Below are positions 14,099 through 42,927 of a DNA stretch of 64,000 bases, in pieces. The notes under the pieces are model-generated. The model was not told the DNA's origin, did not search any database, and worked only from the letters and a program-made list of their open reading frames with translations. The stretch lies in contig JBASWP010000001.1 in NCBI GenBank assembly GCA_049276535.1, forward strand, positions 168,241 to 232,240, in the 5' to 3' direction. This stretch comes from Candidatus Microsaccharimonas sp. (lineage in GTDB: Bacteria; Patescibacteriota; Saccharimonadia; Saccharimonadales; Saccharimonadaceae). The translations under genes and the position numbers were made by a program. The stretch's first letter is position 1. Each line of letters opens with the position of its first letter.

Positions 14099-14127
14099 CT
14101 ATTTCCTACTCTTTCAGAGGTCAGCTA

Positions 14128-14156
14128 TTGAATTATCGTAGTTTTTATGCTATAAT
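14128..14156 (+). promoter_or_regulatory. Sigma70-like promoter (TTGAAT-17-TATAAT, extended TGcTATAAT) driving GC-rich island A
   Basis: TTGAAT at 14128-14133, a 17-bp spacer, TATAAT at 14151-14156 preceded by TGC. It sits in an AT-rich segment immediately 5' of the GC-rich genes. Confidence 0.55.
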
Positions 14157-14269
14157 AGGCTAGCTTGTGAGCCTGCTACCGAATCGGGAGCGAGAGCTCC
14201 AGGTTCGTTAACATGCTCACACACTACGAAAGACTTGTCCCTTGTTAGATCCGACCAAAGGAGAAACAC

Positions 14270-15814
14270 ATGCTTGTCATGGGAATCGCATCTCTGGTTA
14301 TCTGCGCGGTCGGCCTCTACGTGGGCTATCGCACAGGAATGCTGAAGATGCGTTATTGGGTTCGGTTGATTTGGGTCGCCTCGCTTGTCGTGGGGACCTT
14401 CGCCACCGGATTCACCGGCTACTACGCGGCGAACGCCGTGGCGTATCAGGCAGTCGTTGGCGGCTTTCACCAATTCCTTAACGGGACGGTGATCGCTGCT
14501 GACGTCGAAGAGACCAAGTGCGAAAAGGACGGCTCGTGCGTCTACGAGTACGACTGCGACCCCTACCAGGTGCCGCATTACAGTACCGACGAAGACGGCG
14601 AGGTCACCGTTACCTACACCACCGAGTACCACGACTGCCCGTACGCGACTTTCGAGTATCGCTACGAGACGACGGACTCGATCGGTAACACGCACGACTT
14701 TGGGAGCTACATCGCCGCCGAACCTGTCGTCTGGGAGGAAGGAGACCTCCTCGACTTGTTCAACATCGATGTCCCAGAGCTCTTCCCGACCACGATTCCG
14801 GACCACATCCCGCGAGGGGTGCCCGGCGATTGGCAGGCCGCAAGGACTGCCTTGGACAATGGTCGCGGACTGCCGATGACCGTCGAAGGAGAATACGAGA
14901 ACTACATTCTCGCCTCCGACGAGGAACTGCTGAAAGCGTCTTCCGACGATATCGATGCGCTGCTGGATGCGGGTCTGCTCCCCGAGCACACCCAAAACCT
15001 GCACAGCCCGATCTACGGAACGTTCAATGCCAACAAGGTCAACTTCGTCGGGTTCACGCCCGACAACGAGGCCGAGTGGCAAGAGTCAGTCATGCAGTTC
15101 AACGCGGCGCTCGGAAGCGAGCTCCGCGGAGATCTGCACGTGGTCGTCATCGAGGATTCGGCGCTTCCCAGCGACGTCTCCGCAGACGACTACGCCAACG
15201 CCCTCAAGGCGTACTGGCTCAACCATCTCGACAAGTACGCGTTCGGCAAAAACGGCATCATGGTGGTCATCGGAATCGACGACCGTCAGGACACCGTTGA
15301 GTGGGCGCGCGCATCCACAGGCATGCCTACCGGCAACGGAGTCATGCTGTCGTGGATCGAGACGTCCCTCCTGAACGAGTCATACGACCTGCCCACCCTC
15401 ATGGGCGAGACGTATGCGACCGTCGCGAACGGCGAGGCTTCCTACACCATCGGTGAGGGGCTGATTCCGCAAGCGATCATGGTCGACTTCCCGTTCGAAC
15501 GGGTATGCATGAGGTGCGATGAAGACGGCGAAGGCGAAGGTATCGGGTTTAGCGACCTGACCATCAATAGCGAGGTCGAATGGTGGGGCTACTTGGTGAC
15601 GATCATCCTGATGATCGTTATCTTGGCGCTCCCCTGGGGCCTGTTCTTCTACAACAACCTTCTTGCTACCGATCGATACGAAGAGATCGAGGAAGAATCC
15701 ACCCGTATGCGCGAACGCGGTTCCTGGAGAGACGAGTTGAGATACTTGGGTCCCCTGGAATTCGCCAGACGCATCAGACAATCCCGCAAGTCCAACCACA
15801 ACAGATGGAGTTAG
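14270..15814 (+). CDS. GC-rich island A gene 1: membrane protein, function unknown
   Basis: 514-aa ORF with strong third-position GC bias. Two N-terminal TM helices, a large Cys-containing central domain ('CEKDGSCVYEYDCDPY', 'YHDCPY') and a C-terminal TM helix. No recognisable motif. Confidence 0.5.
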   Translation: MLVMGIASLVICAVGLYVGYRTGMLKMRYWVRLIWVASLVVGTFATGFTGYYAANAVAYQAVVGGFHQFLNGTVIAADVEETKCEKDGSCVYEYDCDPYQVPHYSTDEDGEVTVTYTTEYHDCPYATFEYRYETTDSIGNTHDFGSYIAAEPVVWEEGDLLDLFNIDVPELFPTTIPDHIPRGVPGDWQAARTALDNGRGLPMTVEGEYENYILASDEELLKASSDDIDALLDAGLLPEHTQNLHSPIYGTFNANKVNFVGFTPDNEAEWQESVMQFNAALGSELRGDLHVVVIEDSALPSDVSADDYANALKAYWLNHLDKYAFGKNGIMVVIGIDDRQDTVEWARASTGMPTGNGVMLSWIETSLLNESYDLPTLMGETYATVANGEASYTIGEGLIPQAIMVDFPFERVCMRCDEDGEGEGIGFSDLTINSEVEWWGYLVTIILMIVILALPWGLFFYNNLLATDRYEEIEEESTRMRERGSWRDELRYLGPLEFARRIRQSRKSNHNRWS

Positions 15815-15819
15815 ATCCC

Positions 15820-16500
15820 ATGTCCGACAACGACACGTCCTACACGAAGACCCCGCCCCGACTCGTCCCCTGGCTCATCGCCGGTGGTGCGTTCGTCGTC
15901 GCGTTGGTCGTCGGCCTGTCAGTGTTCTTCACCTACCAGAACGTGATCAGCACCGGTAACCAGAAGGAGGCGAACATGAGTTCGCTGTACGCTCAGGGAG
16001 CCACCACGCTGTCCACGTGCCTGGTGCAGACGTCACAGGCGGCCAACGTCGCGCAGGCGGAGTCGGAGGCCTTGCAAGAGGTCTTCGCGTCCGCCATCGC
16101 GGCGCGCTACGACACCCCCGCCGGCCAGATCGACGAGGGCGCGCTGTTCTCGGCGATCGTCGAGGCCTACCCCGATGTGACCGGCCTGGAAGAGACTTTC
16201 CAGCAGGTCATCTCGGTCATCGTCGGCTGCCGCACGGACTACGCCAACGCACAGGCGCTCGTCCAGGTGGCCGTGAAGGACTTCAACAGCTGGCGAACTG
16301 GCAGCTGGGTGGTCCGCACCTTCGGTGGCTCGGAGTTCCCGAACGACAACCTCTACATCGCCATCGGCGACACCGAGGTATACGGTCAGGAGGCCTACGA
16401 GATCATGCGCAAGCCGATCGTCGACAACTCGACGATCACCGCCTACGAGGAAGGAGTCATCGAGATCGAGGACCCCTTCCCGTCGGGCGACGACGAGTAG
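15820..16500 (+). CDS. GC-rich island A gene 2: N-terminally membrane-anchored protein, function unknown
   Basis: Same frame as the track ORF 15580..16500. The likely start is ATG 15820, just after the upstream stop at 15812-15814, giving 'MSDNDTSYTKTPPRLVPWLIAGGAFVVALVV...'. It has one TM helix followed by a soluble domain. Confidence 0.5.
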   Translation: MSDNDTSYTKTPPRLVPWLIAGGAFVVALVVGLSVFFTYQNVISTGNQKEANMSSLYAQGATTLSTCLVQTSQAANVAQAESEALQEVFASAIAARYDTPAGQIDEGALFSAIVEAYPDVTGLEETFQQVISVIVGCRTDYANAQALVQVAVKDFNSWRTGSWVVRTFGGSEFPNDNLYIAIGDTEVYGQEAYEIMRKPIVDNSTITAYEEGVIEIEDPFPSGDDE

Positions 16501-16648
16501 GCATCCCTTCGGGGTAACAAGTAGTGACAGTCCTTCGGGAGTGTGAGCATCCGCCACGGCGTCCGATCACTCGGATGTCCGTGGCGGTATGTGTCCAGGA
16601 ATAGAATAATCCTGCTGATGAGTCGTAAACGACGAAACACATCTTGTA

Positions 16649-16677
16649 TTGAATAATTGTATATTTTATGCTATAAT
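16649..16677 (+). promoter_or_regulatory. Second copy of the TTGAAT-17-TATAAT promoter element
   Basis: Contains TTGAAT, a 17-bp spacer and TATAAT, sharing 'ttttatgctataata' with the 14.1 kb copy. It sits in a short AT-rich gap inside the GC-rich island. Confidence 0.5.
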
Positions 16678-16710
16678 ATACTTATTCCCTACTGAAAGGA
16701 AGTACCCGCG

Positions 16711-17133
16711 ATGAACGTCGCACGAATCCTCGAAATCCTGTTCGATTCACTCGGACAGGTCGACGAGAACCAGAACCCTCTCGAGGGTTCAGAAGTTGTG
16801 GATGTGTACATGCAGCCGATCGCGCTCAACGTCGCGAAGGTGCACGAGTACGCCGCCGAGATGATCGAACTCCTCAAGGAGTGGCCCAGCGAAAGCTGGG
16901 GTCAGTCGGTCCCGCCGCTGGGTGAAGAGATCAACTATCTCATCGCCGGCGCCGTTCTCGACAACCAGCGTCACGCCTTCATGCTGTTCGCCTTCGGCAA
17001 GCTGCTGGACTGGTGGGACATCATGGACCCACACACCATGCTCGGCCTCGCAAAGGACGACCCGTTGGGTCTCCAAATGGCCGGCAGCGGCTTCATCGCC
17101 ATCTTGGGCTACCGTCCGACGGTTCCGGCCTAG
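16711..17133 (+). CDS. GC-rich island A gene 3: hypothetical cytoplasmic protein
   Basis: 140-aa ORF with GC-rich codon usage. A GGAAG ribosome-binding site precedes it and an intrinsic terminator follows. Confidence 0.45.
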   Translation: MNVARILEILFDSLGQVDENQNPLEGSEVVDVYMQPIALNVAKVHEYAAEMIELLKEWPSESWGQSVPPLGEEINYLIAGAVLDNQRHAFMLFAFGKLLDWWDIMDPHTMLGLAKDDPLGLQMAGSGFIAILGYRPTVPA

Positions 17134-17148
17134 ATGGCACACTTGCAG

Positions 17149-17175
17149 TACGGGGATCGGGCGCACACATGTGCG
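17149..17175 (+). terminator. Intrinsic terminator ending island A
   Basis: Perfect hairpin 'gggcgcacacatgtgcgccc' followed by TTTTCTCATTT. Confidence 0.6.
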
Positions 17176-17214
17176 CCCTTTTCTCATTTCAGTATATATC
17201 TATACATGACATCT

Positions 17215-17799
17215 TTAAGACGCGGTCAGTATTGAAAACACTCGCTGACCTACCATGTCATCGAACGGTTCGCCTTGTTCGATTCGGCGACGGAGTTCGG
17301 TTGAGCTGAGGTCTAAGTGCGGAATAGTCAACGCCAGTGCCCGTACCGCCAATGGGTTGATCGTGCTTCCTGCCCGTTCGACAACCAACATGGCTAAATT
17401 CCGAAGCAACCAGTCACCGTGTTGCCATTCACCCATCGTCTCGGTTGAATCGGCGCCAAATACCCAGCGAAATTCGCGATCAGGATAGGTATCCGCCAGC
17501 TCAACGACAGTATCGTAGGTTTCAACCGCGACACTTCGATCGAGTTCGGCCGTATATACCGAAGTAGGAACCCCCGTTACGTCAGTGTCTTCAATCATGC
17601 CGGCAACATACGCCAGTCGCTGTTCACGTGTCGCAGGGATCGCCTTGTCTATTCGGTTACCACTAGGCATCACCCATACTTCAGCCCCGTGTGGCCGAGC
17701 GTAATTGACAGCTGCCTGCAAGATCTCTTGATGAGCCAGGGTAGGGGGGTTAAAAGCTCCGCCATAGATGACTGTTTCGATCTGTTCTGGGTTTCTCAT
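17215..17799 (-). CDS. nadD: Nicotinate-nucleotide adenylyltransferase
   Basis: N-terminal 'YGGAFNPPTLAH' nucleotidyltransferase (H/T)xGH motif. Size (194 aa) and NAD-gene context fit. Confidence 0.75.
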   Translation of the reverse strand: MRNPEQIETVIYGGAFNPPTLAHQEILQAAVNYARPHGAEVWVMPSGNRIDKAIPATREQRLAYVAGMIEDTDVTGVPTSVYTAELDRSVAVETYDTVVELADTYPDREFRWVFGADSTETMGEWQHGDWLLRNLAMLVVERAGSTINPLAVRALALTIPHLDLSSTELRRRIEQGEPFDDMVGQRVFSILTAS

Positions 17800-20475: not shown

Positions 20476-20659
20476 TCTTAATTCTTAATTTGTGACTTTC
20501 GTCCTTGGTTATATTCCTATAGCCTGGACTCATCAGCATATGTCTACATATGGAGTCGTGCAGACCTGCGAGGAGGCGAAGTGAATCGCGCTCTCTCGCA
20601 GGTCTGTTAGTGTACGGGCGTTGCGGCTCGCACGGGTGGAATTACACGACTCTTGCCGG

Positions 20660-21436
20660 CTACGGAGCGAAGAAGCCGTTCATCGCCGTCTGGCTGAACG
20701 ACGCCGACTGGCTGGCCCGCACCGCGGACTGGCTGACGACGGCGAACGCCTTGCGGATCTCGGACGGCGAGTTGCCCGGCGTCAGGACCCACTCATCGAG
20801 CAGGCCCATCTTCGAGAACACGTCGCGGAAGTCCGTGTGGCCATCCTCGATGCCGACGCCGGCGATGATGTGCTGCTCGGTCGCCAGCAGTCCCTTCACG
20901 ATCACGGCGACGTCACGAGCCTTCTTGACGGAACCGTAGTCCGCGCCGTCGGTCGTGACGAAGGTGATGGCTCGCGCCGTCACCCCGCCCTGTTCGAACT
21001 CTGCGATCTTTGCAGCCACGGCCGTGAGGACGAGGATCATCTGGTCGTAGAGCGGGGTGCTGCCGCCGGGGTTGTAGTTCGTCCCGTCCAGGCGGATGGC
21101 CTGGTCGAGCAGAACGTACGGCTGCAGCACTCCTCGGTTGAGCGTCCAGACACCGCAGAGAACCGCGGCCTGCTGCTTGGACGCTTTCAGCGAGTCGACC
21201 ACGAGGTTGTGACCATCGCGGGCGTGCTGGGCGTTGTCGTACATCGAGGTGCTGTCGTCGAGCACCTCGGTGACGATGATGACCTCCGAGGCGTCGATGT
21301 CATCGACGACGACCGTGCCGAGGCCGGCGTTGATAGCCGGCCCCAGCGTGTCGACGACCGTAGTCATCGCCGCGGTCGCGTCGTCATCGACCCCTGCTCC
21401 GGAGATCAGGCTGGACAGAGAGGTTGTGCTTGTCAT
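20660..21436 (-). CDS. vWA-domain protein with MIDAS motif (TerY-like), island B gene 4
   Basis: 'LDDSTSM' (DxSxS MIDAS) and 'VTTDGADYG'. GC-rich codon usage. Last gene of the minus-strand operon. Confidence 0.65.
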   Translation of the reverse strand: MTSTTSLSSLISGAGVDDDATAAMTTVVDTLGPAINAGLGTVVVDDIDASEVIIVTEVLDDSTSMYDNAQHARDGHNLVVDSLKASKQQAAVLCGVWTLNRGVLQPYVLLDQAIRLDGTNYNPGGSTPLYDQMILVLTAVAAKIAEFEQGGVTARAITFVTTDGADYGSVKKARDVAVIVKGLLATEQHIIAGVGIEDGHTDFRDVFSKMGLLDEWVLTPGNSPSEIRKAFAVVSQSAVRASQSASFSQTAMNGFFAP

Positions 21437-21457
21437 CTTGTTCGTTTCCTTTCAGGA

Positions 21458-22510
21458 TCAGACGAGATTGATGTCCGGCCAGGACTCGATCGGGTCGGTC
21501 GAGTTGACGACGTGCATGCCGGCGCTGCGGAACTCGTCGAACGCCTTGTCGGCGTCCGGCCCGTAGTCGACGATCACGTCACCGGTGGTGGGGTCCTTCA
21601 CGACGATCGACGTCGTGCAGTCCTCCATGATGTAGATCTTCTTCGCCAGGGCGATGTCGATCGCGGCGATCTCCCGCAGGAGATCCGAGATGGTCCAGGC
21701 CACGCAGTGGCTCTTCGCCTGTCCCGTGATGATCAGCACGTCGTTCTCGATCAGTTCCTTCAGGAACTCGGTGTTGCGAGGGACGGGCTGTCCGTCGAAC
21801 AGCGAGTTAACCTCGGGTCCCAGGATCGAGTAGTTCTCGACGAAGGGGTGAGTCCCCTTGATCTGGATGCCCGGCTGGACTCCACGGACCAGGCCGTGGT
21901 AGTTGACCGCCTCGGCGATGCCGCTGACGAGGGCGTGGCCCTTGTCACCGATCATGCCGTGGTACGGCCACATCGTCAGAGCGTAGCGCCCCGCCGACTC
22001 CAGCTTCGCGGTGTAGTCCATCAGGTGCTGCCGCAGGAACATCACCGATACCTTCAGCGCCGCCGCTGTGAAGGGATCCGGAACCCAGACCCCACCAGCG
22101 ATGTCTGCGTGGGTGATGGTGGTGAACGGCGCCGGGTGGTTGCCGTTCGCATCGATGACGAACGAGGTGTGGAACACCGCGAACGCTCGGTGCGTGTCCA
22201 GCGTGCAGTCGATGCTGGACAGCGTCGCCAGGTTGCGGTAGATGAACTCCGCGGTCCGGATGCTGTCCTGCACCGCGCCATCTCCGCTCATGCCGGCGAC
22301 GAACAGCTCCCCGTTGGGGTCGCAGAACGTCCGCTGAGTGTCGATGAGCAGCAGGCCGACCTTACGAGCGTCGTCCTTCGCCGGCTTGATCCCGAGGGAC
22401 CGCCGGGTGTCGAGTGCCGCCGACTGCAGCGCGCTGAAATCGATCCAGCGCGTGTCATCGACGACGTTCTCCGGCTTGTAAAACGCCGGTAGTGCCAATG
22501 TGTTCTTCAT
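21458..22510 (-). CDS. Isochorismatase/nicotinamidase-family cysteine hydrolase (long form), island B gene 3
   Basis: 'LLLIDTQRTFCDP' (vDmQndF-like) and 'VLIITGQAKSHCVAWTISD' (catalytic Cys segment) with a roughly 130-aa insertion between them. Lies 21 nt from both neighbouring genes. Confidence 0.55.
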   Translation of the reverse strand: MKNTLALPAFYKPENVVDDTRWIDFSALQSAALDTRRSLGIKPAKDDARKVGLLLIDTQRTFCDPNGELFVAGMSGDGAVQDSIRTAEFIYRNLATLSSIDCTLDTHRAFAVFHTSFVIDANGNHPAPFTTITHADIAGGVWVPDPFTAAALKVSVMFLRQHLMDYTAKLESAGRYALTMWPYHGMIGDKGHALVSGIAEAVNYHGLVRGVQPGIQIKGTHPFVENYSILGPEVNSLFDGQPVPRNTEFLKELIENDVLIITGQAKSHCVAWTISDLLREIAAIDIALAKKIYIMEDCTTSIVVKDPTTGDVIVDYGPDADKAFDEFRSAGMHVVNSTDPIESWPDINLV

Positions 22511-22531
22511 TGCCTTGCCTTTCCGTTTTTT

Positions 22532-24403
22532 CTAGTGGATTTTCAGAAGGACGATCTCGTTACCCAAGACCGCGTAGATCCCCTCTCGTCCTTGAACGAG
22601 CTGGGCGTGGGAGTTCACGAACGGCTCGGTGTCGGGGAAAACTTTCTCCACGAACACCGCACCGCCATTCACCCCAAGTCGAACGATGCCGTCGTCGGTG
22701 GCCACGCAGAGCAGCTTACCGATTGCCAGGTGACCCCGAATACCTCCGCCCAGCCATGAATCCTCACCATCCATGGCACTAGCTTCAGCGAGGAGCTTCC
22801 CTTGCTTGTCGACAACGTAACACTTGTGATACAGCGATCCTTGATCCTGCACCGTCGCGAAGAACCAGATCTGGTCGTTCCCGAAAACGGCAGTGGCGTC
22901 GACCAGCTGGCCGGGAATCGAGGGAATCTCGACCCGGTCATTGAACGACTGACCATTGGCGTTAAAGATGAACGAACGGACGATCTTGCCCGCTTGGAAG
23001 AACCCGAAACCGAGTGATTCCCCTACCCAGACCAGTGTCTGATCTGACAGGATGTCACCGATGCGTTCCGGTCCAAACTTGCCGTCCTTGACCAGCTCGT
23101 TGCCGCTCAGCCAGTAGCTGTGCTGCTGGTTCGCGTCGAACACTGGAAGGATCTGACGATAGAGCCCTGTCGTATAGCTCTGGTTCGCACCGTCGCCATC
23201 GATCTCAAAGACCCTGCCTTCTTTTCCAATCAGCGTCGAGTCGCCCTTGATCCTGAACCGAAGTTCGTGATCCAGTTCGCCCGTGAGGACCTTGCGGCCC
23301 CCCTCGCGGTAGTACGCGCCGTTCTCGTGGTACAGATATCGCAGCTCGTGGTCCTGATTCACGACGTACAGCAGGCGCCCGGTTGTACGGAACACTCGCT
23401 CGGACGTGACGGTACCGCGAACGGTGACGACCGTCTTCACATACCCCGACGTGGCCGCGCAGGTCGGACAGATGTTACGCGCATGGGTTTCCCCACACTG
23501 CGTGCATACCGTCCAGCGCAGATTGTCGAAATAGCGAAGCGGAAACTCACCACGCAGATCTTTCTCGTACACCTGGTGCAGGTAGTCCAGAAAGTCGTCC
23601 GGCAAGACACCGAGGGGGAGGGCCGGCTTCGGGTAGATGACACTCGGGTCAAATACCGTCACTCGTCCCAGCACCCTTTCGTCGTGCTGAAGGCGTCTGC
23701 CGGTTTTGGGCCGGTGAACACCTCCGTACGGACCAACCGCCAGTTGCGACTGCATCAGCATCGTAAGAAATGCGTACCAGTCGGACTCTTGGTTGTGTGG
23801 CCGCGCAAGCACAAGGTGATCGGGAGCACACCGAAGCGGGTCGACGAATCGACTCGTGAAGGTGTGGGTCTCGAACCCTGCGAATTGCATACTGTCGGCG
23901 TCGACCACCTTCACGCCACCGTTATTCACGATGACATTCAGGTCATTGACGTCGCCCAGCACCACAGACTGTGCGTGGATCTGCTTGAACACTCGATGGA
24001 GTTCTCGGAAGATCTTGACGACCTGATTACCGTCGATACCGCTTGCTTCGCGGTACTGACGGCTAGTCAGCTTCATCAAAACATCCCCTCCACTGATGAA
24101 AGGCATGGTGTACCCCACCACCTTGTCGTTCCCGGACTTGTCAAAAGCCAGGGCAAGGGGTGCGACGACTTCCGCAGGGAGACCCTTTGGAAAGACGCGC
24201 AGCTTCTTCTGTTGTTCGGCGATGCGAACGACTGCGCCTTGCTGTGCCGCCGAGTCACCCGTGTAGTCGGGATCCTTCGGTGTCTTGAACAGCTTCAGCA
24301 CGGTGTTGTTGTCGACCTTGAAGACGTCTGCTTCGCCACCTTTACCGATCAAGGCGCCCGGTTGCAAACGGACGACCTGACCATTCAGCATGACTGAAGG
24401 CAT
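22532..24403 (-). CDS. Atypical Ser/Thr protein kinase-like protein with CxxC...CxxC zinc ribbon and C-terminal beta-rich domain, island B gene 2
   Basis: Gly-rich loop 'GKGGEADVF', Lys 'VLKLF', catalytic-loop-like 'VLGDVNDLNVIV', 'VVDADS' in place of DFG. Then 'CTQCGETHARNICPTC' and about 300 further residues. It follows the PP2C gene with a 2-nt gap. Confidence 0.55.
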   Translation of the reverse strand: MPSVMLNGQVVRLQPGALIGKGGEADVFKVDNNTVLKLFKTPKDPDYTGDSAAQQGAVVRIAEQQKKLRVFPKGLPAEVVAPLALAFDKSGNDKVVGYTMPFISGGDVLMKLTSRQYREASGIDGNQVVKIFRELHRVFKQIHAQSVVLGDVNDLNVIVNNGGVKVVDADSMQFAGFETHTFTSRFVDPLRCAPDHLVLARPHNQESDWYAFLTMLMQSQLAVGPYGGVHRPKTGRRLQHDERVLGRVTVFDPSVIYPKPALPLGVLPDDFLDYLHQVYEKDLRGEFPLRYFDNLRWTVCTQCGETHARNICPTCAATSGYVKTVVTVRGTVTSERVFRTTGRLLYVVNQDHELRYLYHENGAYYREGGRKVLTGELDHELRFRIKGDSTLIGKEGRVFEIDGDGANQSYTTGLYRQILPVFDANQQHSYWLSGNELVKDGKFGPERIGDILSDQTLVWVGESLGFGFFQAGKIVRSFIFNANGQSFNDRVEIPSIPGQLVDATAVFGNDQIWFFATVQDQGSLYHKCYVVDKQGKLLAEASAMDGEDSWLGGGIRGHLAIGKLLCVATDDGIVRLGVNGGAVFVEKVFPDTEPFVNSHAQLVQGREGIYAVLGNEIVLLKIH

Positions 24404-24405
24404 GG

Positions 24406-25218: not shown

Positions 25219-25635
25219 GGTTTCACCTCTCTCTTGTAGTGTGTAATTCCTAGTTATTAAGTTTCGAGCGAGATTAACTCTCCCGCTAAGCCCTTAATGC
25301 TCCTCTTCTTCCACTCGGGAAGGCGTCAGTAGCTGATGATCGTTAGTAGGTTATTGTCAACGATACACTAACTGATAGTGTAATAATAACACTTAGTATA
25401 AAGTCATACTATAGTTAATGTAAATTCTACAATAAGTGTCGGTCTTTAACAGATTACAGTTATACGACTATTTATTTATATGCAACTAATAAGACGTTGG
25501 TAATCGGCTGTTCGACGGGTACAAAATCGTCGCCATTTTTTGTAAAGACTTCAGCAGCCGTCGCAAAGCGATTTTCAATCAGCCATTGATTCTGCTTGGG
25601 TTCTGATCCCTTACCTACCGTAAATCCGACGTCGG

Positions 25636-30949: not shown

Positions 30950-30986
30950 GGAATTGAAAAGCCCCAGGGCTTATCAGATGCCTGGG
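30950..30986 (-). terminator. Intrinsic terminator for the flotillin-like gene
   Basis: Hairpin gccccagg/cctggggc followed on the minus strand by TTTTCAATT. A second hairpin ggggtacgt/acgtacccc at about 31033-31066 sits right after the stop. Confidence 0.5.
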
Positions 30987-31081
30987 GCGATTCGCGTACG
31001 TGACCATCGTCTCAATACAATTGTAGAGACGGTGCCGGGGTACGTCAGCGCGAGCCAACGTACCCCAGCCTCATCATGCGA

Positions 31082-32920
31082 CTACTTCTTGTCCCGCTTG
31101 CCCGGACGGACCGCGTCCCGGATGTCCCGGGCGTGGCCGAGGATCTCCGGTGCGGCCTCGGCGGCAGCCTGCAGGCCCGCGATGGCGTCATCCGCGAACG
31201 ATCCCTCGGAACCGGGCTCGACGACAGAGTCGACGGCCGGAACCACGGGTTCGGCGGGCTCCGCCAGAGCGGCAGCGGTTGCAGCGGCCGCGACGGCCGC
31301 AGTTCCCACTCTGGAGCTGGGGGACTTGGCCGAAGCCGCATCTCCCGACACCACCGGAGCCGGAACCTGCGACTGGGTCGCGGGCTCGGGCTCATCCGCA
31401 GCCGGCTTGGAAGCCGGCTGGTTGCGCAGACCGAGAGGAACGCCTCCACCTGCCTGCTCACCGCGGAGTCCCGCGACGAGCGAACCGAGCATGGCCCCCA
31501 GAGGGGCACCGCCGAGCAGCTGAGACTGCAGGTCACCCTGCTGCATCAGCTTGGGCAGGTCGCCGAGGAAGTCGGACAGCACGTTGCCGCCGCCTTCCCG
31601 AGAACCCGCACCCATGTCGACGATCGTGACCTTCTCGCCGATGTTGCCGACGACCTTGGCGGTCTCGGTGGCGATGGTGACACGCATGTTGCTCTCGATC
31701 TCGGCGATGCGGACCTGGAGGTTCGCACCGTCGTTGGCCGCGAGCGCTTCCGCCATCAGGCGTTCGCGCTCGGCCTCGGCCTTACCGAGTGCGAGGATCG
31801 CAGCGGCTTCGGCCTCACCCTTCGCCTGAGTGGCGTCGGCTTCGGCACGACCACGCGCACGGACCTGCTCGGCCTCGGCGTTGGTGGTGATACCGATGGC
31901 GTCAGCCTTACCCTTCGCCTCGATCGTCACCGCCTCGGCCGCAGCCGACGCTTGGGTCCTGGCGACCGTACCGGCCGCCTGTGCGTCGATCTCGCTCTTG
32001 CGAGCCGAGGACTCCGCCTCGATCTCGAGCGTCTTGCGAGCGGTCTCGGCCTGAGTAACCGCCACCTCCTGTTGGGCGGTGGCGGCGGCCTTCTCCTGCT
32101 GCGCACGAACGACAGTGACCTGGCCCTGTGCAGCTGCGGTCTCCTGGTCGAACTCCGCCTGGCGGAGCGCGACATCGCGATCCTTCTCGGCGACGACCAG
32201 CTTCTTGTCGAGCATGGCCGTCTCCGAGACCTGCTCGGATTCGGCCTTCGCCACGTTGATCGCCTTCTCGGCCGCAGCCGTGAGGACCGCGGCACTGCGC
32301 CGCTTCTCCTCGCGGTCTTCGGCCGCCGAGTTGCTGTAGTACTCGTTCCGGTCGCTGACCTCGGCGATGTTCAGCGAGACCAGCTGGAAGCCCAGGTCCA
32401 GCATCTTCGGCGCGACGTTCGTCGTGACCTGGCTGCTGAACTCGTCCTTCTTGGTGAGCACGTCATCCGGCGTCATCGTCGCGACGACCTGACGAATCTC
32501 TCCGTCAAGCGTCAGCTTGAGCGACTTGACGGTGTCGTCGAAGCCGCCACCGATGTAGCCGACGATGGCCTTCTCGAGCGCGCCGTCGGTCTTCGTGTCG
32601 GGACGGATCTGGGCGGTCCACTTGACGACGATCGGCACCTTGGTGCTGGTCTGCGTCTCGTAGTCGTCCGACTGGATCGTCATGTTGCCCAGCGGGAACC
32701 GCTCGCTCTTGCGAAGGAACGAGACGTAGGCGCCGCCGGACTTGATGATCCGAGGGCCCTTCTTCCCGCCGGTAATCACCAGCGCCTCGTCGGCATCGGT
32801 GATCCGATAGCCGATCTTGAAGACGATGAATCCGACGGCGACGACCACGAGGACGCCGATGACACCCACGATGATCGCGGGTCCTTCGAGCAGGCTCTGC
32901 AGCCACGCGAAGATGTCCAT
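31082..32920 (-). CDS. Flotillin-like SPFH/band-7 protein with long Ala/Glu-rich coiled coil, island C
   Basis: N-terminal TM then an SPFH-like region ('VITGGKKGPRIIKSGGAYVSF', 'VPIVVKWTAQIRP'). Followed by an EA-rich coiled coil ('AEAEQVRARGRAEADATQAKGEAEAAAILALGKAEAERERL') and a flexible Ala/Pro tail. GC-rich. Confidence 0.65.
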   Translation of the reverse strand: MDIFAWLQSLLEGPAIIVGVIGVLVVVAVGFIVFKIGYRITDADEALVITGGKKGPRIIKSGGAYVSFLRKSERFPLGNMTIQSDDYETQTSTKVPIVVKWTAQIRPDTKTDGALEKAIVGYIGGGFDDTVKSLKLTLDGEIRQVVATMTPDDVLTKKDEFSSQVTTNVAPKMLDLGFQLVSLNIAEVSDRNEYYSNSAAEDREEKRRSAAVLTAAAEKAINVAKAESEQVSETAMLDKKLVVAEKDRDVALRQAEFDQETAAAQGQVTVVRAQQEKAAATAQQEVAVTQAETARKTLEIEAESSARKSEIDAQAAGTVARTQASAAAEAVTIEAKGKADAIGITTNAEAEQVRARGRAEADATQAKGEAEAAAILALGKAEAERERLMAEALAANDGANLQVRIAEIESNMRVTIATETAKVVGNIGEKVTIVDMGAGSREGGGNVLSDFLGDLPKLMQQGDLQSQLLGGAPLGAMLGSLVAGLRGEQAGGGVPLGLRNQPASKPAADEPEPATQSQVPAPVVSGDAASAKSPSSRVGTAAVAAAATAAALAEPAEPVVPAVDSVVEPGSEGSFADDAIAGLQAAAEAAPEILGHARDIRDAVRPGKRDKK

Positions 32921-33177
32921 GTATTTCTCCTTGGGATAGGTGTTGCATGAATGGTGGGATGAACGTAACTAGTTACGTATGTAGTTTCATGATGAATTGT
33001 GATGATCGTTCGTCGCCCACCAGCGAATTTTGCAATTTTACATCTTTTTTCATAAAAAGTCAAGGGTTGAGAGGTGTTAATTTGATAATAACGCGATGTT
33101 AATTAACTTGCAAAAAATACATAAATATGATATATTACCTCTGTTGTTTTACTGGACACTACCGGAAGGCGTAAGAC

Positions 33178-34182
33178 ATGGACCTGTTCATCGGAATTGT
33201 CATCGGCCTCGCCCTCGCGGGCGGCGTCTTTGGCATTGTTGTTCTCATCAAGCGGCGCAACGCTGCCTGGGAGAACAGCTCCACCAGTTCGTCGCGAGAC
33301 GAGCGAGAAGATCGACGTGACACCTCCCGCGAGGATGCCGAGCGGTCGCTCGCCACGCGCGAGGCGGAAGCGAAGAATGCCGCGTATCGTCAGATGCGCG
33401 ACAAGTACGACGCTGCCACCACGCGCGAGGAGTACGTCGCTCTGCAGACCGAGCTCGAGGCCGGACGATCGAAGCTCGCCGAGGCGGACTATGACTCGCT
33501 GGTCAGCCAGATCGAGAGCGAGATCGAAGCGCTGGACGAGGAAGCTCGAGCCCGCGCCGAGATCGAGCCCAAGCTGGCGGCCTTCGCGGCACTGAAGAAC
33601 GTCACGGACAAGGAGGAGCTCTTCACTAAGCTTCACCCCATGTTCGCGACCGACGAAACGCCGGTGATCACCTACGACGAGCTGGAAGAGCACGCCGAAG
33701 AAGGCGACCTCGACTGGCTCGACACCGCCTACGACGAGGCGCTCATCGAGCACCTCAAGGCGTTGTTGATCGCCGCTCGCGAGGGCACGGTCGCCGACTA
33801 CAAGGCGGTCACCAAGCTGTGGGACGAGCTCGAGGACTACAGCAGCAACACGTACGACGACAGGGATGACCTGGTCAGCCAGAACCTCGCAACCGAGTGG
33901 AACGAGATGATCGTCCGCTTCAAGCGCGAGCCTGACTACGACGAGGACCTGTACGGGCTCGACGACCTCGACGAGGACGGTTACAAGGCGATCATCAAGA
34001 AGGCCCGTGAAGACCACGACCTTCTCAGCCTGCGGCTGCTGTTCATCATCGTGAACGAATGGCAGGATTCGGATTTCACGGACCTGCTGGTCGCCAGCTT
34101 CACCGAAGAGCTTCAGGCCCAGCTGGACGCCCAGTACCTCGCCCTCGGGTTCACGCCCAACGAGCAGGAACGAAGCGTTTAG
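33178..34182 (+). CDS. Membrane-anchored, highly acidic coiled-coil protein, function unknown (island C)
   Basis: TM helix 'MDLFIGIVIGLALAGGVFGIVVLI' followed by an acidic region. It diverges from the flotillin gene across an AT-rich promoter region at 32930-33175. Confidence 0.45.
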   Translation: MDLFIGIVIGLALAGGVFGIVVLIKRRNAAWENSSTSSSRDEREDRRDTSREDAERSLATREAEAKNAAYRQMRDKYDAATTREEYVALQTELEAGRSKLAEADYDSLVSQIESEIEALDEEARARAEIEPKLAAFAALKNVTDKEELFTKLHPMFATDETPVITYDELEEHAEEGDLDWLDTAYDEALIEHLKALLIAAREGTVADYKAVTKLWDELEDYSSNTYDDRDDLVSQNLATEWNEMIVRFKREPDYDEDLYGLDDLDEDGYKAIIKKAREDHDLLSLRLLFIIVNEWQDSDFTDLLVASFTEELQAQLDAQYLALGFTPNEQERSV

Positions 34183-34302
34183 CCACGCCGGCTCGAAAAC
34201 AGCAACAACTCGTCGCTAATACCGGCGATACGGAGGGCGGCTCGGGATTTCCCCGGGCTGCCCTCCAGCAACACCCACGCGGGTGTTATTTTATTTCAAA
34301 AA

Positions 34303-34331
34303 TTGACAATAGTATAGATAATTGTTATAAT
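34303..34331 (+). promoter_or_regulatory. Perfect-consensus sigma70 promoter TTGACA-17-TATAAT
   Basis: TTGACA at 34303-34308, a 17-bp spacer, TATAAT at 34326-34331. A GAGGA ribosome-binding site and a GTG start at 34368 follow. Confidence 0.6.
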
Positions 34332-34367
34332 ATACATACTGTTCACGAGACGAGATGAGGAATAATC

Positions 34368-34754
34368 GTGTTGATCCCCAAAGGAGACGGAACGTTCACG
34401 AGCGGACCGTTAGACATCATCCTGATTTACCACAACGTCGAAGCGGACACCTTCCATCCCGCCTTCTACCGCGAGCACGGCATGCCGGGCCCGCCGGAAC
34501 TGGCGAGTGAGCAGGACTTCGTCCGGCTCATGAGTGACAAGCACCACACCGATGGGCTCCCCACCCTCGAAGAGGCTCAGGAGTTCGTTCGAACGACCAT
34601 GCAACCCACGTTCGGGGTGCCTGACCGCAACATCGTCCTCGACCCGCCCTATCCATGGCACGGTCAGATCGGTGATGTGATGATCGTGCAGAACTGGCTG
34701 AAGGTCGGACCTGATGCCACGTTCCGCGAGGTCAACGTCAACGTCACTACATGA
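34368..34754 (+). CDS. Hypothetical protein (island C), GTG start
   Basis: 128-aa GC-rich ORF downstream of a consensus promoter and ribosome-binding site. No recognisable motif. Confidence 0.4.
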   Translation: MLIPKGDGTFTSGPLDIILIYHNVEADTFHPAFYREHGMPGPPELASEQDFVRLMSDKHHTDGLPTLEEAQEFVRTTMQPTFGVPDRNIVLDPPYPWHGQIGDVMIVQNWLKVGPDATFREVNVNVTT

Positions 34755-34832
34755 TCGAAGGTCCACCCTTCGCACCTGGGACACTCTCCCGTGCGGGGGG
34801 TGTTTCAGTTTTTGGCGAAGAAATTATTCTAT

Positions 34833-39270: not shown

Positions 39271-39345
39271 TGGCTGGGGATGAGGGATTCGAACCCCCGA
39301 ATGTCGGCACCAAAAGCCGATGCCTTACCACTTGGCGAATCCCCA
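39271..39345 (-). tRNA. tRNA-Gln (anticodon UUG)
   Basis: Reverse complement reads 'TGGGGATTCGCCAAGTGGTAAGGCATCGGCTTTTGGTGCCGACATTCGGGGGTTCGAATCCCTCATCCCCAGCCA'. It has U1-A72, anticodon loop tTTTGgt, a canonical T-loop and an encoded CCA, and is close to E. coli tRNA-Gln. Confidence 0.8.
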
Positions 39346-41391: not shown

Positions 41392-41503
41392 TCTCCATAA
41401 GTGTACGGTACATTGACGGTATTATCAATATGTGATAATGTAAGGATTGACCTAAACACAAATGGAGTTTAGTCAATTCGCCTAGCTTTTTGGAGTAACC
41501 GCA

Positions 41504-41752
41504 ATGAAGACCACCCCGCTCTTGCAGTCACCCGTCACCGACGTGGCGGCCGCAACAGAGGAGGCTTCGGCCGCCTCCAACCGTGAAGGGCTGCAGCAGG
41601 ACCTGATCGCACTCATGGTGTCGCCCGAGTCCGCTCGCTCTACTCCCTCGTCGGCAGTCGACCCCATCAGCGCCCTGCGCATGTCGACTCCGGTCGACTT
41701 CGACTCCGCCTTCAAGCGGTACCACGGCAAGCCGATGGCCACACACGCCTGA
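41504..41752 (+). CDS. Small GC-rich hypothetical ORF (island D), antisense to the ribosomal operon
   Basis: 82-aa ORF with a TTGACG promoter-like element about 60 nt upstream and a strong terminator at 41896-41922. It could equally be a non-coding insert. Confidence 0.3.
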   Translation: MKTTPLLQSPVTDVAAATEEASAASNREGLQQDLIALMVSPESARSTPSSAVDPISALRMSTPVDFDSAFKRYHGKPMATHA

Positions 41753-41895
41753 GGTTCCCCTCACCCACCATACGTCGTCCGTCGTGGCTCACCCCACGAC
41801 AACACATCGTGCGGCCTTGGGGGTAGAACCTCAGGCCAATCGACCTTTATATGAACGCGTTTCATATCGGGGCAGATTGGCCTAAAATAACAAAT

Positions 41896-41922
41896 AACCG
41901 CCCTAATACTAGGCGGTTTTTT
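41896..41922 (+). terminator. Intrinsic terminator after island D
   Basis: 'aaccgccctaatactaggcgg' hairpin followed by TTTTTT. Confidence 0.6.
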
Positions 41923-42009
41923 GTACACATAAGCTCTCAACAAATGTGGTGATTTGTCGCTCGCATGAGCCATTTCTCGCAGTCCAAGAGTTTCTGAACT
42001 TAAGCGTTA

Positions 42010-42441
42010 TTATATATCAAGGTCGTCGAGTTCTGCAAGCTCTGCACGGGTCTTTTTTGAGTAGGCTGAACCGTTGTCCACAGACTCATCTGTCGAGGTT
42101 TCCACAGGTGCATCGGTCGCATCATCAGAAGTTGTATCAGAAACAGGCGTTTCATCACGATCATCAGATGAGATCGTATGAGTTGGCCCATCGCCATCAT
42201 TGTTAACAATCTTCAAGTTATAGCGAGCGTCGTTCTTTGTTCCTAAGGCACGTAACAGCGTACGCAAACTTTGGGCAGTCACGCCACGCTTACCAATAAC
42301 GCGACCGAGATCTTCTGGATTGACGGTCAAACTAAGTAACACACCTTTTTCATCAATAATACGATCGACAATAACGTCGTCCGGGTGTCCGACAACGGAT
42401 TTTACGATATATTCTATGAATTGCTGGTCAATGGTCGACAT
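42010..42441 (-). CDS. KH-domain RNA-binding protein (YlqC/UPF0109-like)
   Basis: 'LGRVIGKRGVTAQSLRTL' GxxG KH motif with an acidic C-terminal extension. Lies between rpsP and trmD. Confidence 0.7.
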   Translation of the reverse strand: MSTIDQQFIEYIVKSVVGHPDDVIVDRIIDEKGVLLSLTVNPEDLGRVIGKRGVTAQSLRTLLRALGTKNDARYNLKIVNNDGDGPTHTISSDDRDETPVSDTTSDDATDAPVETSTDESVDNGSAYSKKTRAELAELDDLDI

Positions 42442-42522
42442 AATTCCCCCTTATAGTGACGTTGGTCGTGCATCTGATATCGTAATTTAATTGTAGCACG
42501 AATCCGCTTGTGCTCTCCTACA

Positions 42523-42551
42523 TTGACTTTTATAAGCATTAGTGATATAAT
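42523..42551 (+). promoter_or_regulatory. Consensus sigma70 promoter TTGACT-17-TATAAT driving island E
   Basis: TTGACT at 42523-42528, a 17-bp spacer, TATAAT at 42546-42551. A GGAG ribosome-binding site precedes ATG 42604. Confidence 0.55.
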
Positions 42552-42603
42552 ATATAGCGTTGTTATAGAGATACTATAGCCACAGCACCTGAAGGAGCAC
42601 CCA

Positions 42604-42801
42604 TTGGACATCGTCGAAGGCGAGCTGAACCTCCACGCCCACTACAACGGCTGGACTCAGCACCAGCTGGAAGCTGCACAGGACTACCTGCGCGCCCTCC
42701 ACTCCGACCCCAACGCGACACCGCCGCCCACCAAGGTCTTGTCCATAAACAAGGCCAACGTCGTCAAGACGCTGATGGAGCGGTACGCCGGCGTCAGCTA
42801 G
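42604..42801 (+). CDS. Small GC-rich hypothetical ORF (island E)
   Basis: 65-aa ORF with a consensus promoter, a ribosome-binding site and two downstream hairpins. No motif recognised. Confidence 0.3.
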   Translation: MDIVEGELNLHAHYNGWTQHQLEAAQDYLRALHSDPNATPPPTKVLSINKANVVKTLMERYAGVS

Positions 42802-42829
42802 GCTTCTACGTGAGCCCCTCGGTGTTGAT

Positions 42830-42914
42830 CCCCGTCCGTCGCCTCCCCTGGCTACGGACGGGGATCGCCCCAACTTTTTGAAATCAAAAACCCGCCGAGT
42901 TGGCGGGCTTTTTT
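42830..42914 (+). terminator. Tandem intrinsic terminators after island E
   Basis: Hairpin ccccgtccgt...acggacgggg followed by CAACTTTTTG. Then 'cccgccgagttggcgggc' followed by TTTTTTATT. Confidence 0.6.
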
Positions 42915-42927
42915 ATTGGGCTGGTAA

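Follow-up and report, generated by a model that had tools for sequence, protein, structure and literature searches.

GC-rich islands in a Saccharibacteria chromosome

The window, that is, the whole 64,000-nucleotide stretch of DNA analyzed here, is a part of a chromosome from Saccharibacteria (TM7, Candidate Phyla Radiation or CPR), which are tiny parasitic bacteria. Its genes include those for LigA, LeuRS, PyrH and DapA, rpsP, trmD and a pilin-like gene, among others, and its NadE protein is 67-77% identical to Saccharibacteria MAGs. In 200-nt windows, GC content reaches 0.58-0.76 at 14.3-16.5, 16.7-17.1, 20.6-25.2, 31.0-32.9, 33.2-34.2, 34.4-34.8, 41.5-41.85 and 42.6-42.9 kb, versus ~0.44-0.52 outside these islands, and the island edges are sharp. 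Similarly, GC content at third codon positions (GC3) is 0.71-0.91 in the island genes versus 0.36-0.59 in the rest of the window. The GC-rich islands with abrupt junctions proposed in an earlier sequence-only reading are thus borne out. The five islands counted there make up eight transcription units. These islands are natural, self-contained chromosomal gene cassettes.

The GC excess lies almost wholly at third codon positions, GC1 and GC2 being close to native values, and the amino-acid make-up of the island proteins resembles that of native proteins. Within the protein families of cassette I2 (see below), comparison of GC1/GC2 with GC3 gave z = -1.2 to -1.7 for three of the four genes. G/C-ending codons are favoured across all codon families, with C- and G-ending codons about equally frequent. 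The non-coding 3′UTRs of the cassettes are also GC-rich (0.47-0.62).

Organization of the eight cassettes

Each unit consists of an AT-rich promoter region, one or more GC3-rich ORFs and a GC-rich 3′UTR, followed by either an intrinsic terminator or a type III hammerhead ribozyme. Cassette I1 (14112..16644, + strand; edges set by alignment to contig L091, one of the related loci designated here by L numbers, and by homology to L089, 14127-16641) carries the promoter TTGAAT-17-TGCTATAAT (14128-14156, +) and a 106-nt leader. It encodes I1_A (14270-15814, +), a 514-aa protein with transmembrane segments at both ends (phrog_2087), and I1_B (15820-16500, +), a LemA-like protein of 226 aa (phrog_1383). 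A GC-rich hairpin 3′UTR follows, and the cassette is closed by a type III hammerhead (16588..16643, +; Rfam RF00008, 50.2 bits, gathering threshold 48.5). Cassette I1_C (16645..17232, +) has a duplicated promoter (16649-16677, +), an ORF of 140 aa (16711-17133, +; GC3 0.82) and a terminator (17159-17178, +).

Cassette I2, or island 2 (20493..25292, - strand), is an operon of four genes. Their products are a PP2C phosphatase (24406-25218, -; PF13672), a kinase-like protein of atypical form (22532-24403, -), a protein of 350 aa whose similarity to nicotinamidase/cysteine hydrolases is weak (21458-22510, -) and a vWA-like protein of 258 aa that has a DxSxS motif (20660-21436, -). Both the weak Pkinase match and the vWA assignment are below curated thresholds; the kinase-like protein also has weak PADLOC matches to PD-T4-6 and Stk2. 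The promoter, TTTACA-18-TATACT, lies at ~25.3-25.45 kb (-) in a region carrying an operator-like repeat. The 20.5 kb edge is the 3′ end of the operon, with a GC-rich 3′UTR and a second type III hammerhead (20494..20557, -) found by a purpose-built descriptor scan.

Cassette I3 (30952..34301, both strands) is a divergent pair comprising a flotillin/SPFH gene (31082-32920, -) and a gene for a 334-aa acidic membrane protein (33178-34182, +). A 257-bp AT-rich promoter region is common to the two genes, whose terminators are separate. The cassette is located in a variable region and adjoins tRNA-Gln. Cassette I3_128 (34302..34830, +) is composed of a perfect promoter, TTGACA-17-TATAAT (34303-34331, +; 12/12 consensus match), an ORF of 128 aa (34368-34754, +; GC3 0.78) and a terminator (34776-34808, +). 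Cassette I4 (41392..41925, +), between trmD and khpA, encodes 82 aa (41504-41752, +; GC3 0.83), followed by a GC-rich 3′UTR and a bidirectional terminator (41896-41918). Its promoter, TTGACG at 41415 plus TGTGATAAT with a short spacer, is a weak assignment read from the sequence. Finally, cassette I5 (42523..42915, +), between rpsP and khpA, carries the promoter TTGACT-17-TATAAT (42523-42551, +), an ORF of 65 aa with a TTG start (42604-42801, +) and a terminator (42891-42907, +); in L084 the rpsP-khpA gap is only 127 bp.

Near-consensus promoters with an extended -10 are found upstream of I1 (14128), I1_C (16649), I3_128 (34303) and I5 (42523), while the flotillin gene and its divergent partner show weaker matches at 33063 (-) and 33103/33108 (+). 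The 20.5 kb edge of island 2 has no promoter. Because the number of promoter-like sites between 13 and 33 kb does not exceed chance (16 versus 13.6 expected), the pattern rests on the location of the best sites. TGCTATAAT occurs three times (14148, 16669 and 35882) versus 0.46 expected. The first two copies are parts of the duplicated 32-nt promoter (88% identical) and the third lies at the ccdA operon, in agreement with the view that the promoters are of host style. Judging from these motifs, the cassettes are probably transcribed from promoters of their own. Predicted hairpin-plus-T terminators close 6 of the 8 units (17159, 30957-30990 (-), 34270, 34776, 41896 and 42891), as had been noticed for most islands, and hammerheads close the remaining two (I1 A-B and island 2).

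The I1 hammerhead is kept in L090/L091, L086/L087 and L088, and as a C3U variant in L089. The I2 hammerhead is kept with compensatory stem changes in L090/L091, L092, L097, L106, L098, L099 and L101. Its Rfam scores are below the gathering threshold (15.5 bits in L092, 45.9 bits in L101), and the window copy has no Hammerhead_3 match in Rfam up to E = 10. The descriptor scan returned 16 matches in 2.63 Mb versus 0.67 in shuffles, and 15 of these 16 are located at the 3′ ends of I1- or I2-type cassettes. In the hammerhead stems, 84% of cells are paired versus 64% in shuffles, and double-sided changes occur in 40 cells versus 16. These hammerheads may well cleave in vivo; self-cleavage would cut the transcript and part the cassette RNA from that of the neighbouring gene.

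Cassettes in other Saccharibacteria

Independently assembled metagenomes contain these cassettes, with the same promoters and UTRs, in other Saccharibacteria; the sites are partly shared with the window and partly different, and GC3 is high in nearly every case. The cassettes thus carry their AT-rich promoters and UTRs along between genomes, contrary to the idea of promoter capture at each insertion. GC3-rich I1-type cassettes are present in L086, L088, L089 and L084, GC3-rich I2 in L092, L106, L099 and others, and GC3-rich flotillin cassettes in L081/L083, L084, L200 and L199; one flotillin homologue, in L100, has native GC3. For I2, the GC3 of the 350-aa gene exceeds that of its flanks by a mean of +0.18 over 38 loci. 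The whole I3 unit is 83% identical at the nucleotide level to L081 3499-6740. The homologue of I3_128 in L089 (52% protein identity, GC3 0.73) adjoins an I1-type cassette. The sequence-only reading had named the presence of the islands at orthologous positions in many related genomes as evidence against itself, and islands 1 and 2 do occupy the same sites in sister contigs L090/L091. The more distant L092, L106 and L099 likewise have island 2 at the orthologous site, and an NAD-salvage/NrtR cluster surrounds its operon in the window, L091, L092 and L099. The NrtR|MTase slot in L001 holds a different GC-rich cargo. No integrase, vehicle or boundary repeats were found at the cassettes.

Relative to L091, native coding sequences are 74-86% identical at the nucleotide level and cassettes 92-96%, non-coding parts included; the fraction of differing four-fold sites is 0.49-0.65 in native genes and 0.09-0.22 in cassettes. 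The same contrast is seen for flotillin versus L083 and for I2 between L092 and L106. The I2 promoter/operator region (25293-25450) has diverged as fast as native sequence. In their native proteins, the window, L092 and L106 lie at equal distances from one another, but the I2 proteins of L092 and L106 are much closer to each other than either is to the window, in conflict with the backbone. The relative-distance test at the protein level, based on few genes, was not significant.

Origin of the cassettes and comparison with known systems

We think it probable (roughly 0.6) that the cassettes are exchangeable accessory expression units of the Saccharibacteria pangenome, whose high GC content is maintained by a fixation bias in favour of G/C. 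They would pass between related Saccharibacteria by allele swap at a conserved slot or by relocation. Such exchange would explain why the cassettes are several-fold less diverged than the backbone and, together with relocation, why they interrupt gene pairs that are contiguous in other genomes. On this reading, the GC-richness is no remnant of a donor's base composition in neutral decay but is sustained, at least partly, by a fixation bias that favours G/C at synonymous sites. When third-position changes in I2 were polarised (S = G or C, W = A or T), 82 S>W versus 41 W>S were counted at GC3 0.76, although such recent differences may include polymorphisms that never fix. These changes imply an equilibrium GC3 of 0.62 versus 0.45 for the backbone; under the native equilibrium (assumed 0.45), a ratio of 3.9:1 is expected (p = 7e-4). 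The bias could reflect selection at synonymous sites, for example for stable mRNA, or alternatively GC-biased gene conversion tied to frequent recombination. The GC-rich non-coding 3′UTRs fit a foreign or regional origin as well as selection.

Low synonymous divergence could also stem from strong synonymous-site constraint rather than recent exchange. In a purely vertical history, old resident genes would keep a high GC3 and a slow dS by strong selection for G/C-ending codons, without meaningful exchange. We regard this as unlikely, although several observations agree with it. The same gene is consistently the GC3-richer one: I1_B exceeds I1_A in five genomes, and the 350-aa gene exceeds the kinase gene at most loci. 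Moreover, four-fold divergence within cassettes falls as GC3 rises, cassette and native proteins have similar amino-acid identity in close comparisons, and the position of island 2 in the NAD cluster is conserved. However, GC-neutral changes relative to L091 are also about four times rarer in cassettes than in native genes (C↔G, 0.058 versus 0.242; A↔T, 0.045 versus 0.209), despite the about equal use of C- and G-ending codons. Ribosomal protein genes show no island-type bias, either in the window (rpsP, GC3 0.36) or in related loci (rpsP, rpsO and rpsT, overall GC 0.44-0.49). Vertical descent is also at odds with the I2 protein distances, with the different genomic contexts of I1-type and flotillin cassettes, and with I1_C, which is absent from L091, where a native-GC 201-aa gene sits instead. 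Finally, L090 has an allele replacement at the I3 site, where its flotillin pair shares only 43% protein identity, although the native neighbours share 84-99%.

The horizontal history proposed in the sequence-only reading is retained, but its recent high-GC donor is not. Saccharibacteria live on Actinobacteria, and recent direct transfer from a high-GC donor such as this host, with host-type promoters gained later, would be in line with the general high-GC-genome pattern of island codon usage, the resemblance of the GC-rich 3′UTRs to payload DNA, and the Actinomycetaceae and Coriobacteriia among the named flotillin matches. These matches, however, are only 42-48% identical, and a database of 5.8 billion proteins yielded no homologue above ~52% except on Saccharibacteria-type contigs. 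The closest homologues found for each of the three query proteins are metagenome proteins, every contig inspected looks like a Saccharibacteria chromosome, and the best matches are themselves GC-rich islands within moderate-GC genomes. Named matches are mostly Saccharibacteria or other CPR, and those of I1_A and the kinase are CPR lineages. Recent import is improbable also given that islands 1 and 2 share sites with relatives whose synonymous sites are already saturated, that promoters and leaders are conserved along with the cassettes, that neutral decay would give a stronger substitution skew than the one observed, and that the amino-acid composition is native-like.

Equally improbable, in our opinion, is an origin as morons or other cargo of an unrecognised GC-rich phage or plasmid of Saccharibacteria, the islands being traces of repeated lysogenic or plasmid traffic. 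Promoter-gene-terminator units between conserved genes do follow the moron pattern, I1_A and I1_B match PHROG families, kinase homologues (39-46%) occur on large IMG/VR contigs, and the flotillin cassette lies in a variable region beside a tRNA gene. Type III hammerheads, moreover, adjoin single genes or short operons, often in bacterial prophages, an arrangement that points to transcripts being processed into defined units (Perreault et al. 2011, PMC3088659). Yet phage contigs sharing the identical hammerhead core represent an unrelated family, I1_A and flotillin have no close match in 50,697 phage records or IMG/VR, no phage structural, integrase or replication genes are present in or near the islands, and attachment-site repeats were not found. 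As for a chimeric assembly with high-GC reads or a synthetic construct, the modular layout, the perfect promoter at 34303 and a hammerhead beside a promoter only superficially resemble synthetic-biology parts (consensus promoters, ribozyme insulators and terminators), and such an artefact is effectively refuted by the same junctions and cassettes in independent ENA, JGI, Logan and NCBI assemblies, the natural divergence of cassettes between assemblies with codon-position structure, the position of the hammerheads at operon 3′ ends and their covariation across genomes, and plasmid and phage collections without a near match. As the cassettes are carried and swapped by related TM7 while staying GC-rich, and two of them end in a hammerhead, they are neither fresh high-GC imports nor engineered.

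The exchangeable units proposed here parallel several known systems. Phage morons (Juhala/Hendrix) are reportedly independent promoter-gene-terminator units of deviant base composition between conserved genes. The cassettes are likewise autonomous, with their own promoter and terminator and a sharp compositional contrast, and are inserted between genes adjacent in relatives (rpsP|khpA, NrtR|HisPhos, I1 hammerhead|NMNAT). Unlike morons, they reside in a cellular CPR chromosome without a surrounding prophage, several are multi-gene, two end in a ribozyme, and conserved slots hold the same cassettes in different species. Horizontally acquired genomic islands are said to undergo amelioration (the Lawrence and Ochman model). 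They share with the cassettes deviant GC3 and codon usage and a patchy distribution, and island 3 lies in a variable region beside a tRNA gene. The cassettes differ in lacking integrase and direct repeats and in being GC-richer, not AT-richer, than the genome; their nearest relatives are in the same phylum and GC-rich there too, and their composition persists where synonymous sites are saturated, with a skew that is not neutral decay. Like integron gene cassettes (an ORF with a structured 3′ attC), they are small exchangeable units with a conserved structured 3′ element, and one slot holds different cargo by genome. Here, however, there is no IntI or attC, each unit brings its own promoter, the units are dispersed instead of forming an array, and the 3′ element contains a complete catalytic ribozyme core.

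The I2 operon resembles the TerY-P triad, reportedly composed of vWA, PP2C phosphatase and Ser/Thr kinase genes (Anantharaman/Iyer/Aravind), in combining PP2C with kinase-like and DxSxS vWA-like proteins, the latter two below curated thresholds. It differs by its fourth conserved gene, the one weakly similar to nicotinamidase/cysteine hydrolases, by its location inside the NrtR/NAD-salvage cluster and by its 3′ hammerhead. Our literature search turned up no paper that connects hammerheads to Saccharibacteria or Patescibacteria. As in prophages (PMC3088659), the type III hammerheads here lie beside single genes or short operons; unlike there, GC-rich operons on Saccharibacteria chromosomes have a single hammerhead at their 3′ end, which is orthologously conserved with two unrelated cargo types.

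The islands and their chromosomal setting

The window carries cellular housekeeping genes (NAD-dependent DNA ligase, LeuRS, UMP kinase, DapA, ribosomal protein S16, KhpA and TrmD) together with an NAD-salvage set (NAPRT, NMNAT, NadE, NrtR and Nudix proteins), a pilin-like RCC1 protein and four tRNAs. The best relatives of its NadE are found in Candidatus Microsaccharimonas and other Saccharibacteria MAGs, at 67-77% amino acid identity. The window is a cellular sequence, neither phage nor synthetic. A jumbo phage was first suspected from the scattered tRNAs, LeuRS and NAD-salvage genes; it was ruled out by LigA, PyrH, DapA, rpsP and trmD together with the Saccharibacteria matches.

Abrupt GC-rich islands, as described in the sequence-only reading, are indeed present where that reading had placed them: from a background of about 0.46-0.50, sliding windows jump to 0.58-0.76 GC. 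The signal is an effect of the third codon position. GC at this position (GC3) is 0.71-0.91 in island genes versus 0.36-0.59 in native genes, i.e., window genes outside the islands, and GC1 and GC2 are nearly alike in the two groups. G- and C-ending codons are favoured in all synonymous families of island genes, and the amino-acid composition is near native. Since rpsP, a ribosomal protein gene of the same window, has a GC3 of 0.36, the island GC3 is not ordinary high-expression codon bias. The promoter regions of the cassettes are AT-rich (0.21-0.43 GC), the I1 leader is intermediate (0.51), and the 3'UTRs of all cassettes are GC-rich (0.47-0.62) compared with native intergenic DNA (0.26-0.43).

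The five islands resolve into eight transcription units. I1 (14112..16644, plus strand) has an extended -10 promoter and a 106-nt leader, two genes, for a 514-aa membrane protein (I1_A) and a LemA-like protein (I1_B), and then a 3'UTR rich in hairpins and a type III hammerhead ribozyme. Next to it lies I1_C (16645..17232, plus strand), a 140-aa ORF preceded by a promoter copy 88% identical to the I1 promoter. I2 (20493..25292, minus strand) is an operon encoding a PP2C, a kinase-like protein, a 350-aa protein and a 258-aa vWA-like protein; its promoter had been assigned to the wrong end of the island. In I3 (30952..34301) a flotillin and a divergent 334-aa partner have a single AT-rich promoter region in common. 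I3_128 (34302..34830), I4 (41392..41925, 82 aa) and I5 (42523..42915, 65 aa), all on the plus strand, are small one-gene units. Candidate promoters matching the consensus are present for most cassette units, and two units close with hammerheads. The total of promoter-like sites across 13-33 kb is at chance level. The I1 leader (14158-14269) travels with its cassette, being 100% identical over about 120 nt to the sister contig L091 and about 69% identical to L089 (1985-2090). It includes a TTAACAWGC motif common to five genomes; no Rfam family and no consensus fold were found for it.

Probable exchange of the cassettes, and their GC content

The closest homologues of I1_A, the flotillin and the kinase are unnamed metagenome proteins. 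Named homologues are mostly from CPR bacteria (Saccharibacteria, Uhrbacteria, Yanofskybacteria and Falkowbacteria). The inspected contigs bearing the closest homologues resemble Saccharibacteria chromosomes of moderate GC, in which the homologue is again a GC-rich island. This is seen for the flotillin in L081/L083, L084 and L200 (more weakly in L199) and for the I1_A/I1_B pair in L086, L088, L089 and L084. In the sister contigs L090/L091, with native proteins 84-99% identical to those of the window, islands 1 and 2 occupy the same sites with the same GC3. Island 2 is also found, GC3-enriched and in the NAD-salvage neighbourhood, in the more distant L092 (an NCBI Microsaccharimonas MAG), L106 and L099. 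In 38 loci that carry the operon, the GC3 of the 350-aa gene is on average 0.18 above that of its flanks. Island 2 is absent from L002 and L004, with no insert in the slot, and the NrtR/MTase slot of L001 is filled by other GC-rich genes. L001 is the closest MAG by NadE identity; its slot (12632-20224) holds an ADP-ribosylglycohydrolase, a nucleotidyltransferase-like protein and GC-rich genes including an adenylosuccinate-synthetase-like ORF.

Several comparisons speak for horizontal exchange of the cassettes among Saccharibacteria. The alignment of the window with L091 is a mosaic that tracks composition: native coding sequences are 74-86% identical in nucleotides and cassettes 92-96%. The promoter and leader of I1 and the proximal UTRs of I2 are included in the high-identity blocks, whose edges lie near 14112, 16644, 20493 and 25292. 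At four-fold sites the differences are 0.49-0.65 in native genes and 0.09-0.22 in cassette genes. The frequency of GC-neutral changes in cassettes is likewise about one quarter of that in native genes (0.058 versus 0.242 for C<->G; 0.045 versus 0.209 for A<->T). The same contrast was obtained for the flotillin against L083 and for island 2 between L092 and L106. Among the window, L092 and L106, native protein distances are about equal; for the I2 proteins the L092-L106 distance is by far the smallest. The whole of I3, including its AT-rich promoter, is 83% identical in nucleotides to L081, and the flotillin pair found at the I3 site in L090 is only 43% identical in protein.

Strong synonymous-site constraint could also cause the low synonymous divergence of the cassettes, and recency and constraint are only partly separated. 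The most GC3-rich cassette genes diverge least, and the richer member of each cassette is always the same gene. The operon-internal spacers differ at 9 of 42 nt, in keeping with the cassette rate, and do not discriminate between the two.

The sequence-only reading had offered either a recent acquisition from a high-GC donor or a construct-like insertion. Its observation is real and its explanation holds in part; neither a simple recent foreign insert nor a construct is borne out. The best matches lie in Saccharibacteria-type contigs of moderate GC; the flotillin also has named matches in Actinomycetaceae and Coriobacteriia, and these are only 42-48% identical. Recent acquisition is contradicted by the presence of islands 1 and 2 in L090/L091 and of island 2 in L092, L106 and L099; only I1_C, missing from L091, shows the absence from the orthologous site that is a feature of a recent island. 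A tRNA-associated variable region was found for island 3 only, downstream of tRNA-Gln, and the islands have no integrase domains and no direct repeats at their boundaries. Plasmid and phage collections gave no near match to the cassettes, and megablast to plasmids was empty. As for a phage vehicle, tblastn searches of phage records with I1_A and the kinase returned either no match or matches of about 20-29% identity; in IMG/VR the flotillin and I1_A scans were empty and the kinase relatives only 39-46% identical. The exact I1_A protein was not on record, and nothing relevant was found in the literature on GC-rich islands in Saccharibacteria or Patescibacteria. Finally, independent assemblies from ENA, Logan, JGI and NCBI contain the cassettes with natural divergence, so that neither a chimeric assembly nor a construct can account for them.

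To see what keeps the cassettes GC-rich, third-position changes were polarised among the window and two metagenome copies of 97% identity, L091 serving as the outgroup. There were 82 changes from G or C to A or T and 41 in the opposite direction at a GC3 of 0.76; the corresponding equilibrium GC3 is about 0.62 (p = 7e-4). Under neutral decay towards the backbone equilibrium GC3 of about 0.45, roughly 3.9 losses per gain would be expected. The observed skew is below this expectation, and therefore a GC-favouring fixation bias acts on the cassette genes. The bias may be either selection or biased gene conversion, and the cassettes offer a natural system for telling synonymous-site selection from biased gene conversion. 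A regression of GC1/GC2 on GC3 in the I2 families, run to learn when the GC enrichment arose, gave no clear date for it. We hold with moderate confidence a model of exchange plus GC bias, and class the islands as moron-like accessory cassettes and putative hammerhead-processed operons.

Cargo, neighbouring genes and a possible NAD link

The cargo functions can be assigned only tentatively. The flotillin is a clear SPFH protein and I1_B is LemA-like by PHROG. In island 2, the PP2C matches PP2C_2 (2.6e-19), and the kinase-like protein, an atypical kinase, scores 26.9 bits with Pkinase, below the cut-off of 31.7. The 258-aa vWA-like protein has an invariant DDSGS motif and integrin I-domain matches at E of about 0.5. 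PADLOC defence-system models gave weak kinase matches only. No island 2 gene is richer in GC3 than that for the 350-aa protein (21458-22510, minus strand). Asp, Lys and Cys (SHCV) residues are invariant in this protein, which in profile searches weakly matched PncA of M. tuberculosis and a cysteine hydrolase. These matches are consistent with the location of the gene beside NAPRT. Sequence and profile searches of PDB with the 350-aa and 258-aa proteins gave weak hints only.

The 23-nt motif TTAnTGTTGACnTTACAnTAAnT, with inverted TACACTAAC half-sites, occurs at 17815-17837, 25351-25373 and 27917-27939, in the promoter regions of NadE/NMNAT, island 2 and NAPRT/HisPhos, respectively. It is probably an NrtR operator; if so, the GC-rich operon would be linked to NAD regulation. 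Its presence in both the NAD promoters and island 2 suggests that the NrtR regulon includes island 2.

In the LeuRS (45945-48848, minus strand), the editing domain is followed by an inserted NUDIX domain (about residues 388-499). Such a fusion is unusual, and the surrounding region of the genome already has many Nudix and NAD genes. A 503-aa protein (48883-50394, minus strand) has a prepilin-type methylation motif at its N terminus and also seven RCC1 repeats; a homologue of it lies near the flotillin cassette in L084. The stretch from tRNA-Gln to the Nudix-kinase gene (30933-39345) is a variable accessory region. In L081 (3368-3499) the flotillin cassette begins 60 nt past the tRNA; the variable region of the window interposes an AAA_15/AAA_21 ATPase, ccdA-trx, dapA and I3_128. 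Upstream of island 1, two large minus-strand ORFs (11190-13391 and 27-2348) carry a Zeta-toxin-like P-loop domain and a trypsin-like peptidase domain; no counterpart of the Zeta-toxin-like ORF was seen in the related loci checked.

Terminal hammerheads and comparison with known systems

The I1 hammerhead (16588-16643) scores 50.2 bits and reaches the RF00008 gathering threshold of 48.5; its L091 copy scores 49.9. A second hammerhead, at the 3' end of I2 (20494-20557, minus strand), was found by a descriptor scan and has no Hammerhead_3 match in Rfam up to E = 10. The I2 orthologues in L092 and L101 score 15.5 and 45.9 bits, respectively, and the threshold is reached by I1 alone. The descriptor specifies the core CUGANGA ... 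GAAA, the A15.1-U16.1 pair, an NUH cleavage triplet and three stems with stem III open; this core and the three stems were found in both window copies and in 13 related copies. Over the window and all fetched loci (2.63 Mb), the scan returned 16 type III hammerheads versus 0.67 per shuffle, and all except one of the 16 are 3'-terminal in a cassette of I1 type or I2 type. In 13 aligned sequences the catalytic core is invariant, with compensatory changes in stems I and III. Stem cells are paired in 84% of cases, compared with 64% in shuffles and 26-45% in slid controls, and double-sided stem changes number 40 versus 16 +/- 3, a count reached in none of 500 shuffles. In both I1 and I2, the edge of the high-identity block relative to L091 coincides with the outer end of the hammerhead. 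The hammerhead of the I1-type cassette in L089 (4322-4379), which scores just 34.5 bits, has U for core C3 (UUGAUGAG); this change may be tolerated or may impair the ribozyme.

Hammerheads closing two unrelated cassette types would give bacterial hammerheads a concrete and testable role as 3'-end makers or insulators. A bolder proposal, which we regard as unlikely, is that Saccharibacteria possess a previously undescribed class of exchangeable expression cassettes with a consensus promoter, a payload selected to be GC3-rich and a terminal type III hammerhead. The hammerhead 3' end and the GC-rich coding sequence and 3'UTR would then form an mRNA-stabilising or insulating package, or else the hammerhead would have a role in cassette mobility. 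If true, the stabilising or insulating package would let cassettes function unaltered in any recipient of this reduced, naturally transformable lineage.

Gene-flanking bacterial hammerheads are known from prophages (PMC3088659), and no report of hammerheads in Saccharibacteria or Patescibacteria was found in the literature. The exact core-plus-stem-II string CTGATGAGTCGTAAACGACGAAA also occurs in 14 IMG/VR phage contigs (L185-L198, 50-144 kb), where it belongs to a different, highly conserved hammerhead family; these contigs carry no cassette genes and are unrelated to the cassettes.

As in morons, insertion between genes that are neighbours in related genomes is seen: NrtR directly adjoins HisPhos in L002, and the rpsP-khpA gap, the site of I5 in the window, is 127 bp in L084. 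Morons lie inside a phage or prophage genome; the window has housekeeping genes, no phage modules and no match to phage records. Cassette divergence is several-fold below that of the backbone, and alleles are exchanged at fixed slots, which bears on how accessory functions (membrane/stress proteins, a signalling operon and NAD-linked genes) are renewed in tiny-genome CPR bacteria. In practice, GC-based binning or contamination filters could wrongly remove cassette segments from Saccharibacteria bins. Horizontally mobile bacterial DNA is usually AT-richer than its host and drifts toward host composition. The pattern in this ultra-small epibiotic lineage is the opposite, with recurring accessory cassettes that stay strongly GC3-rich across species.
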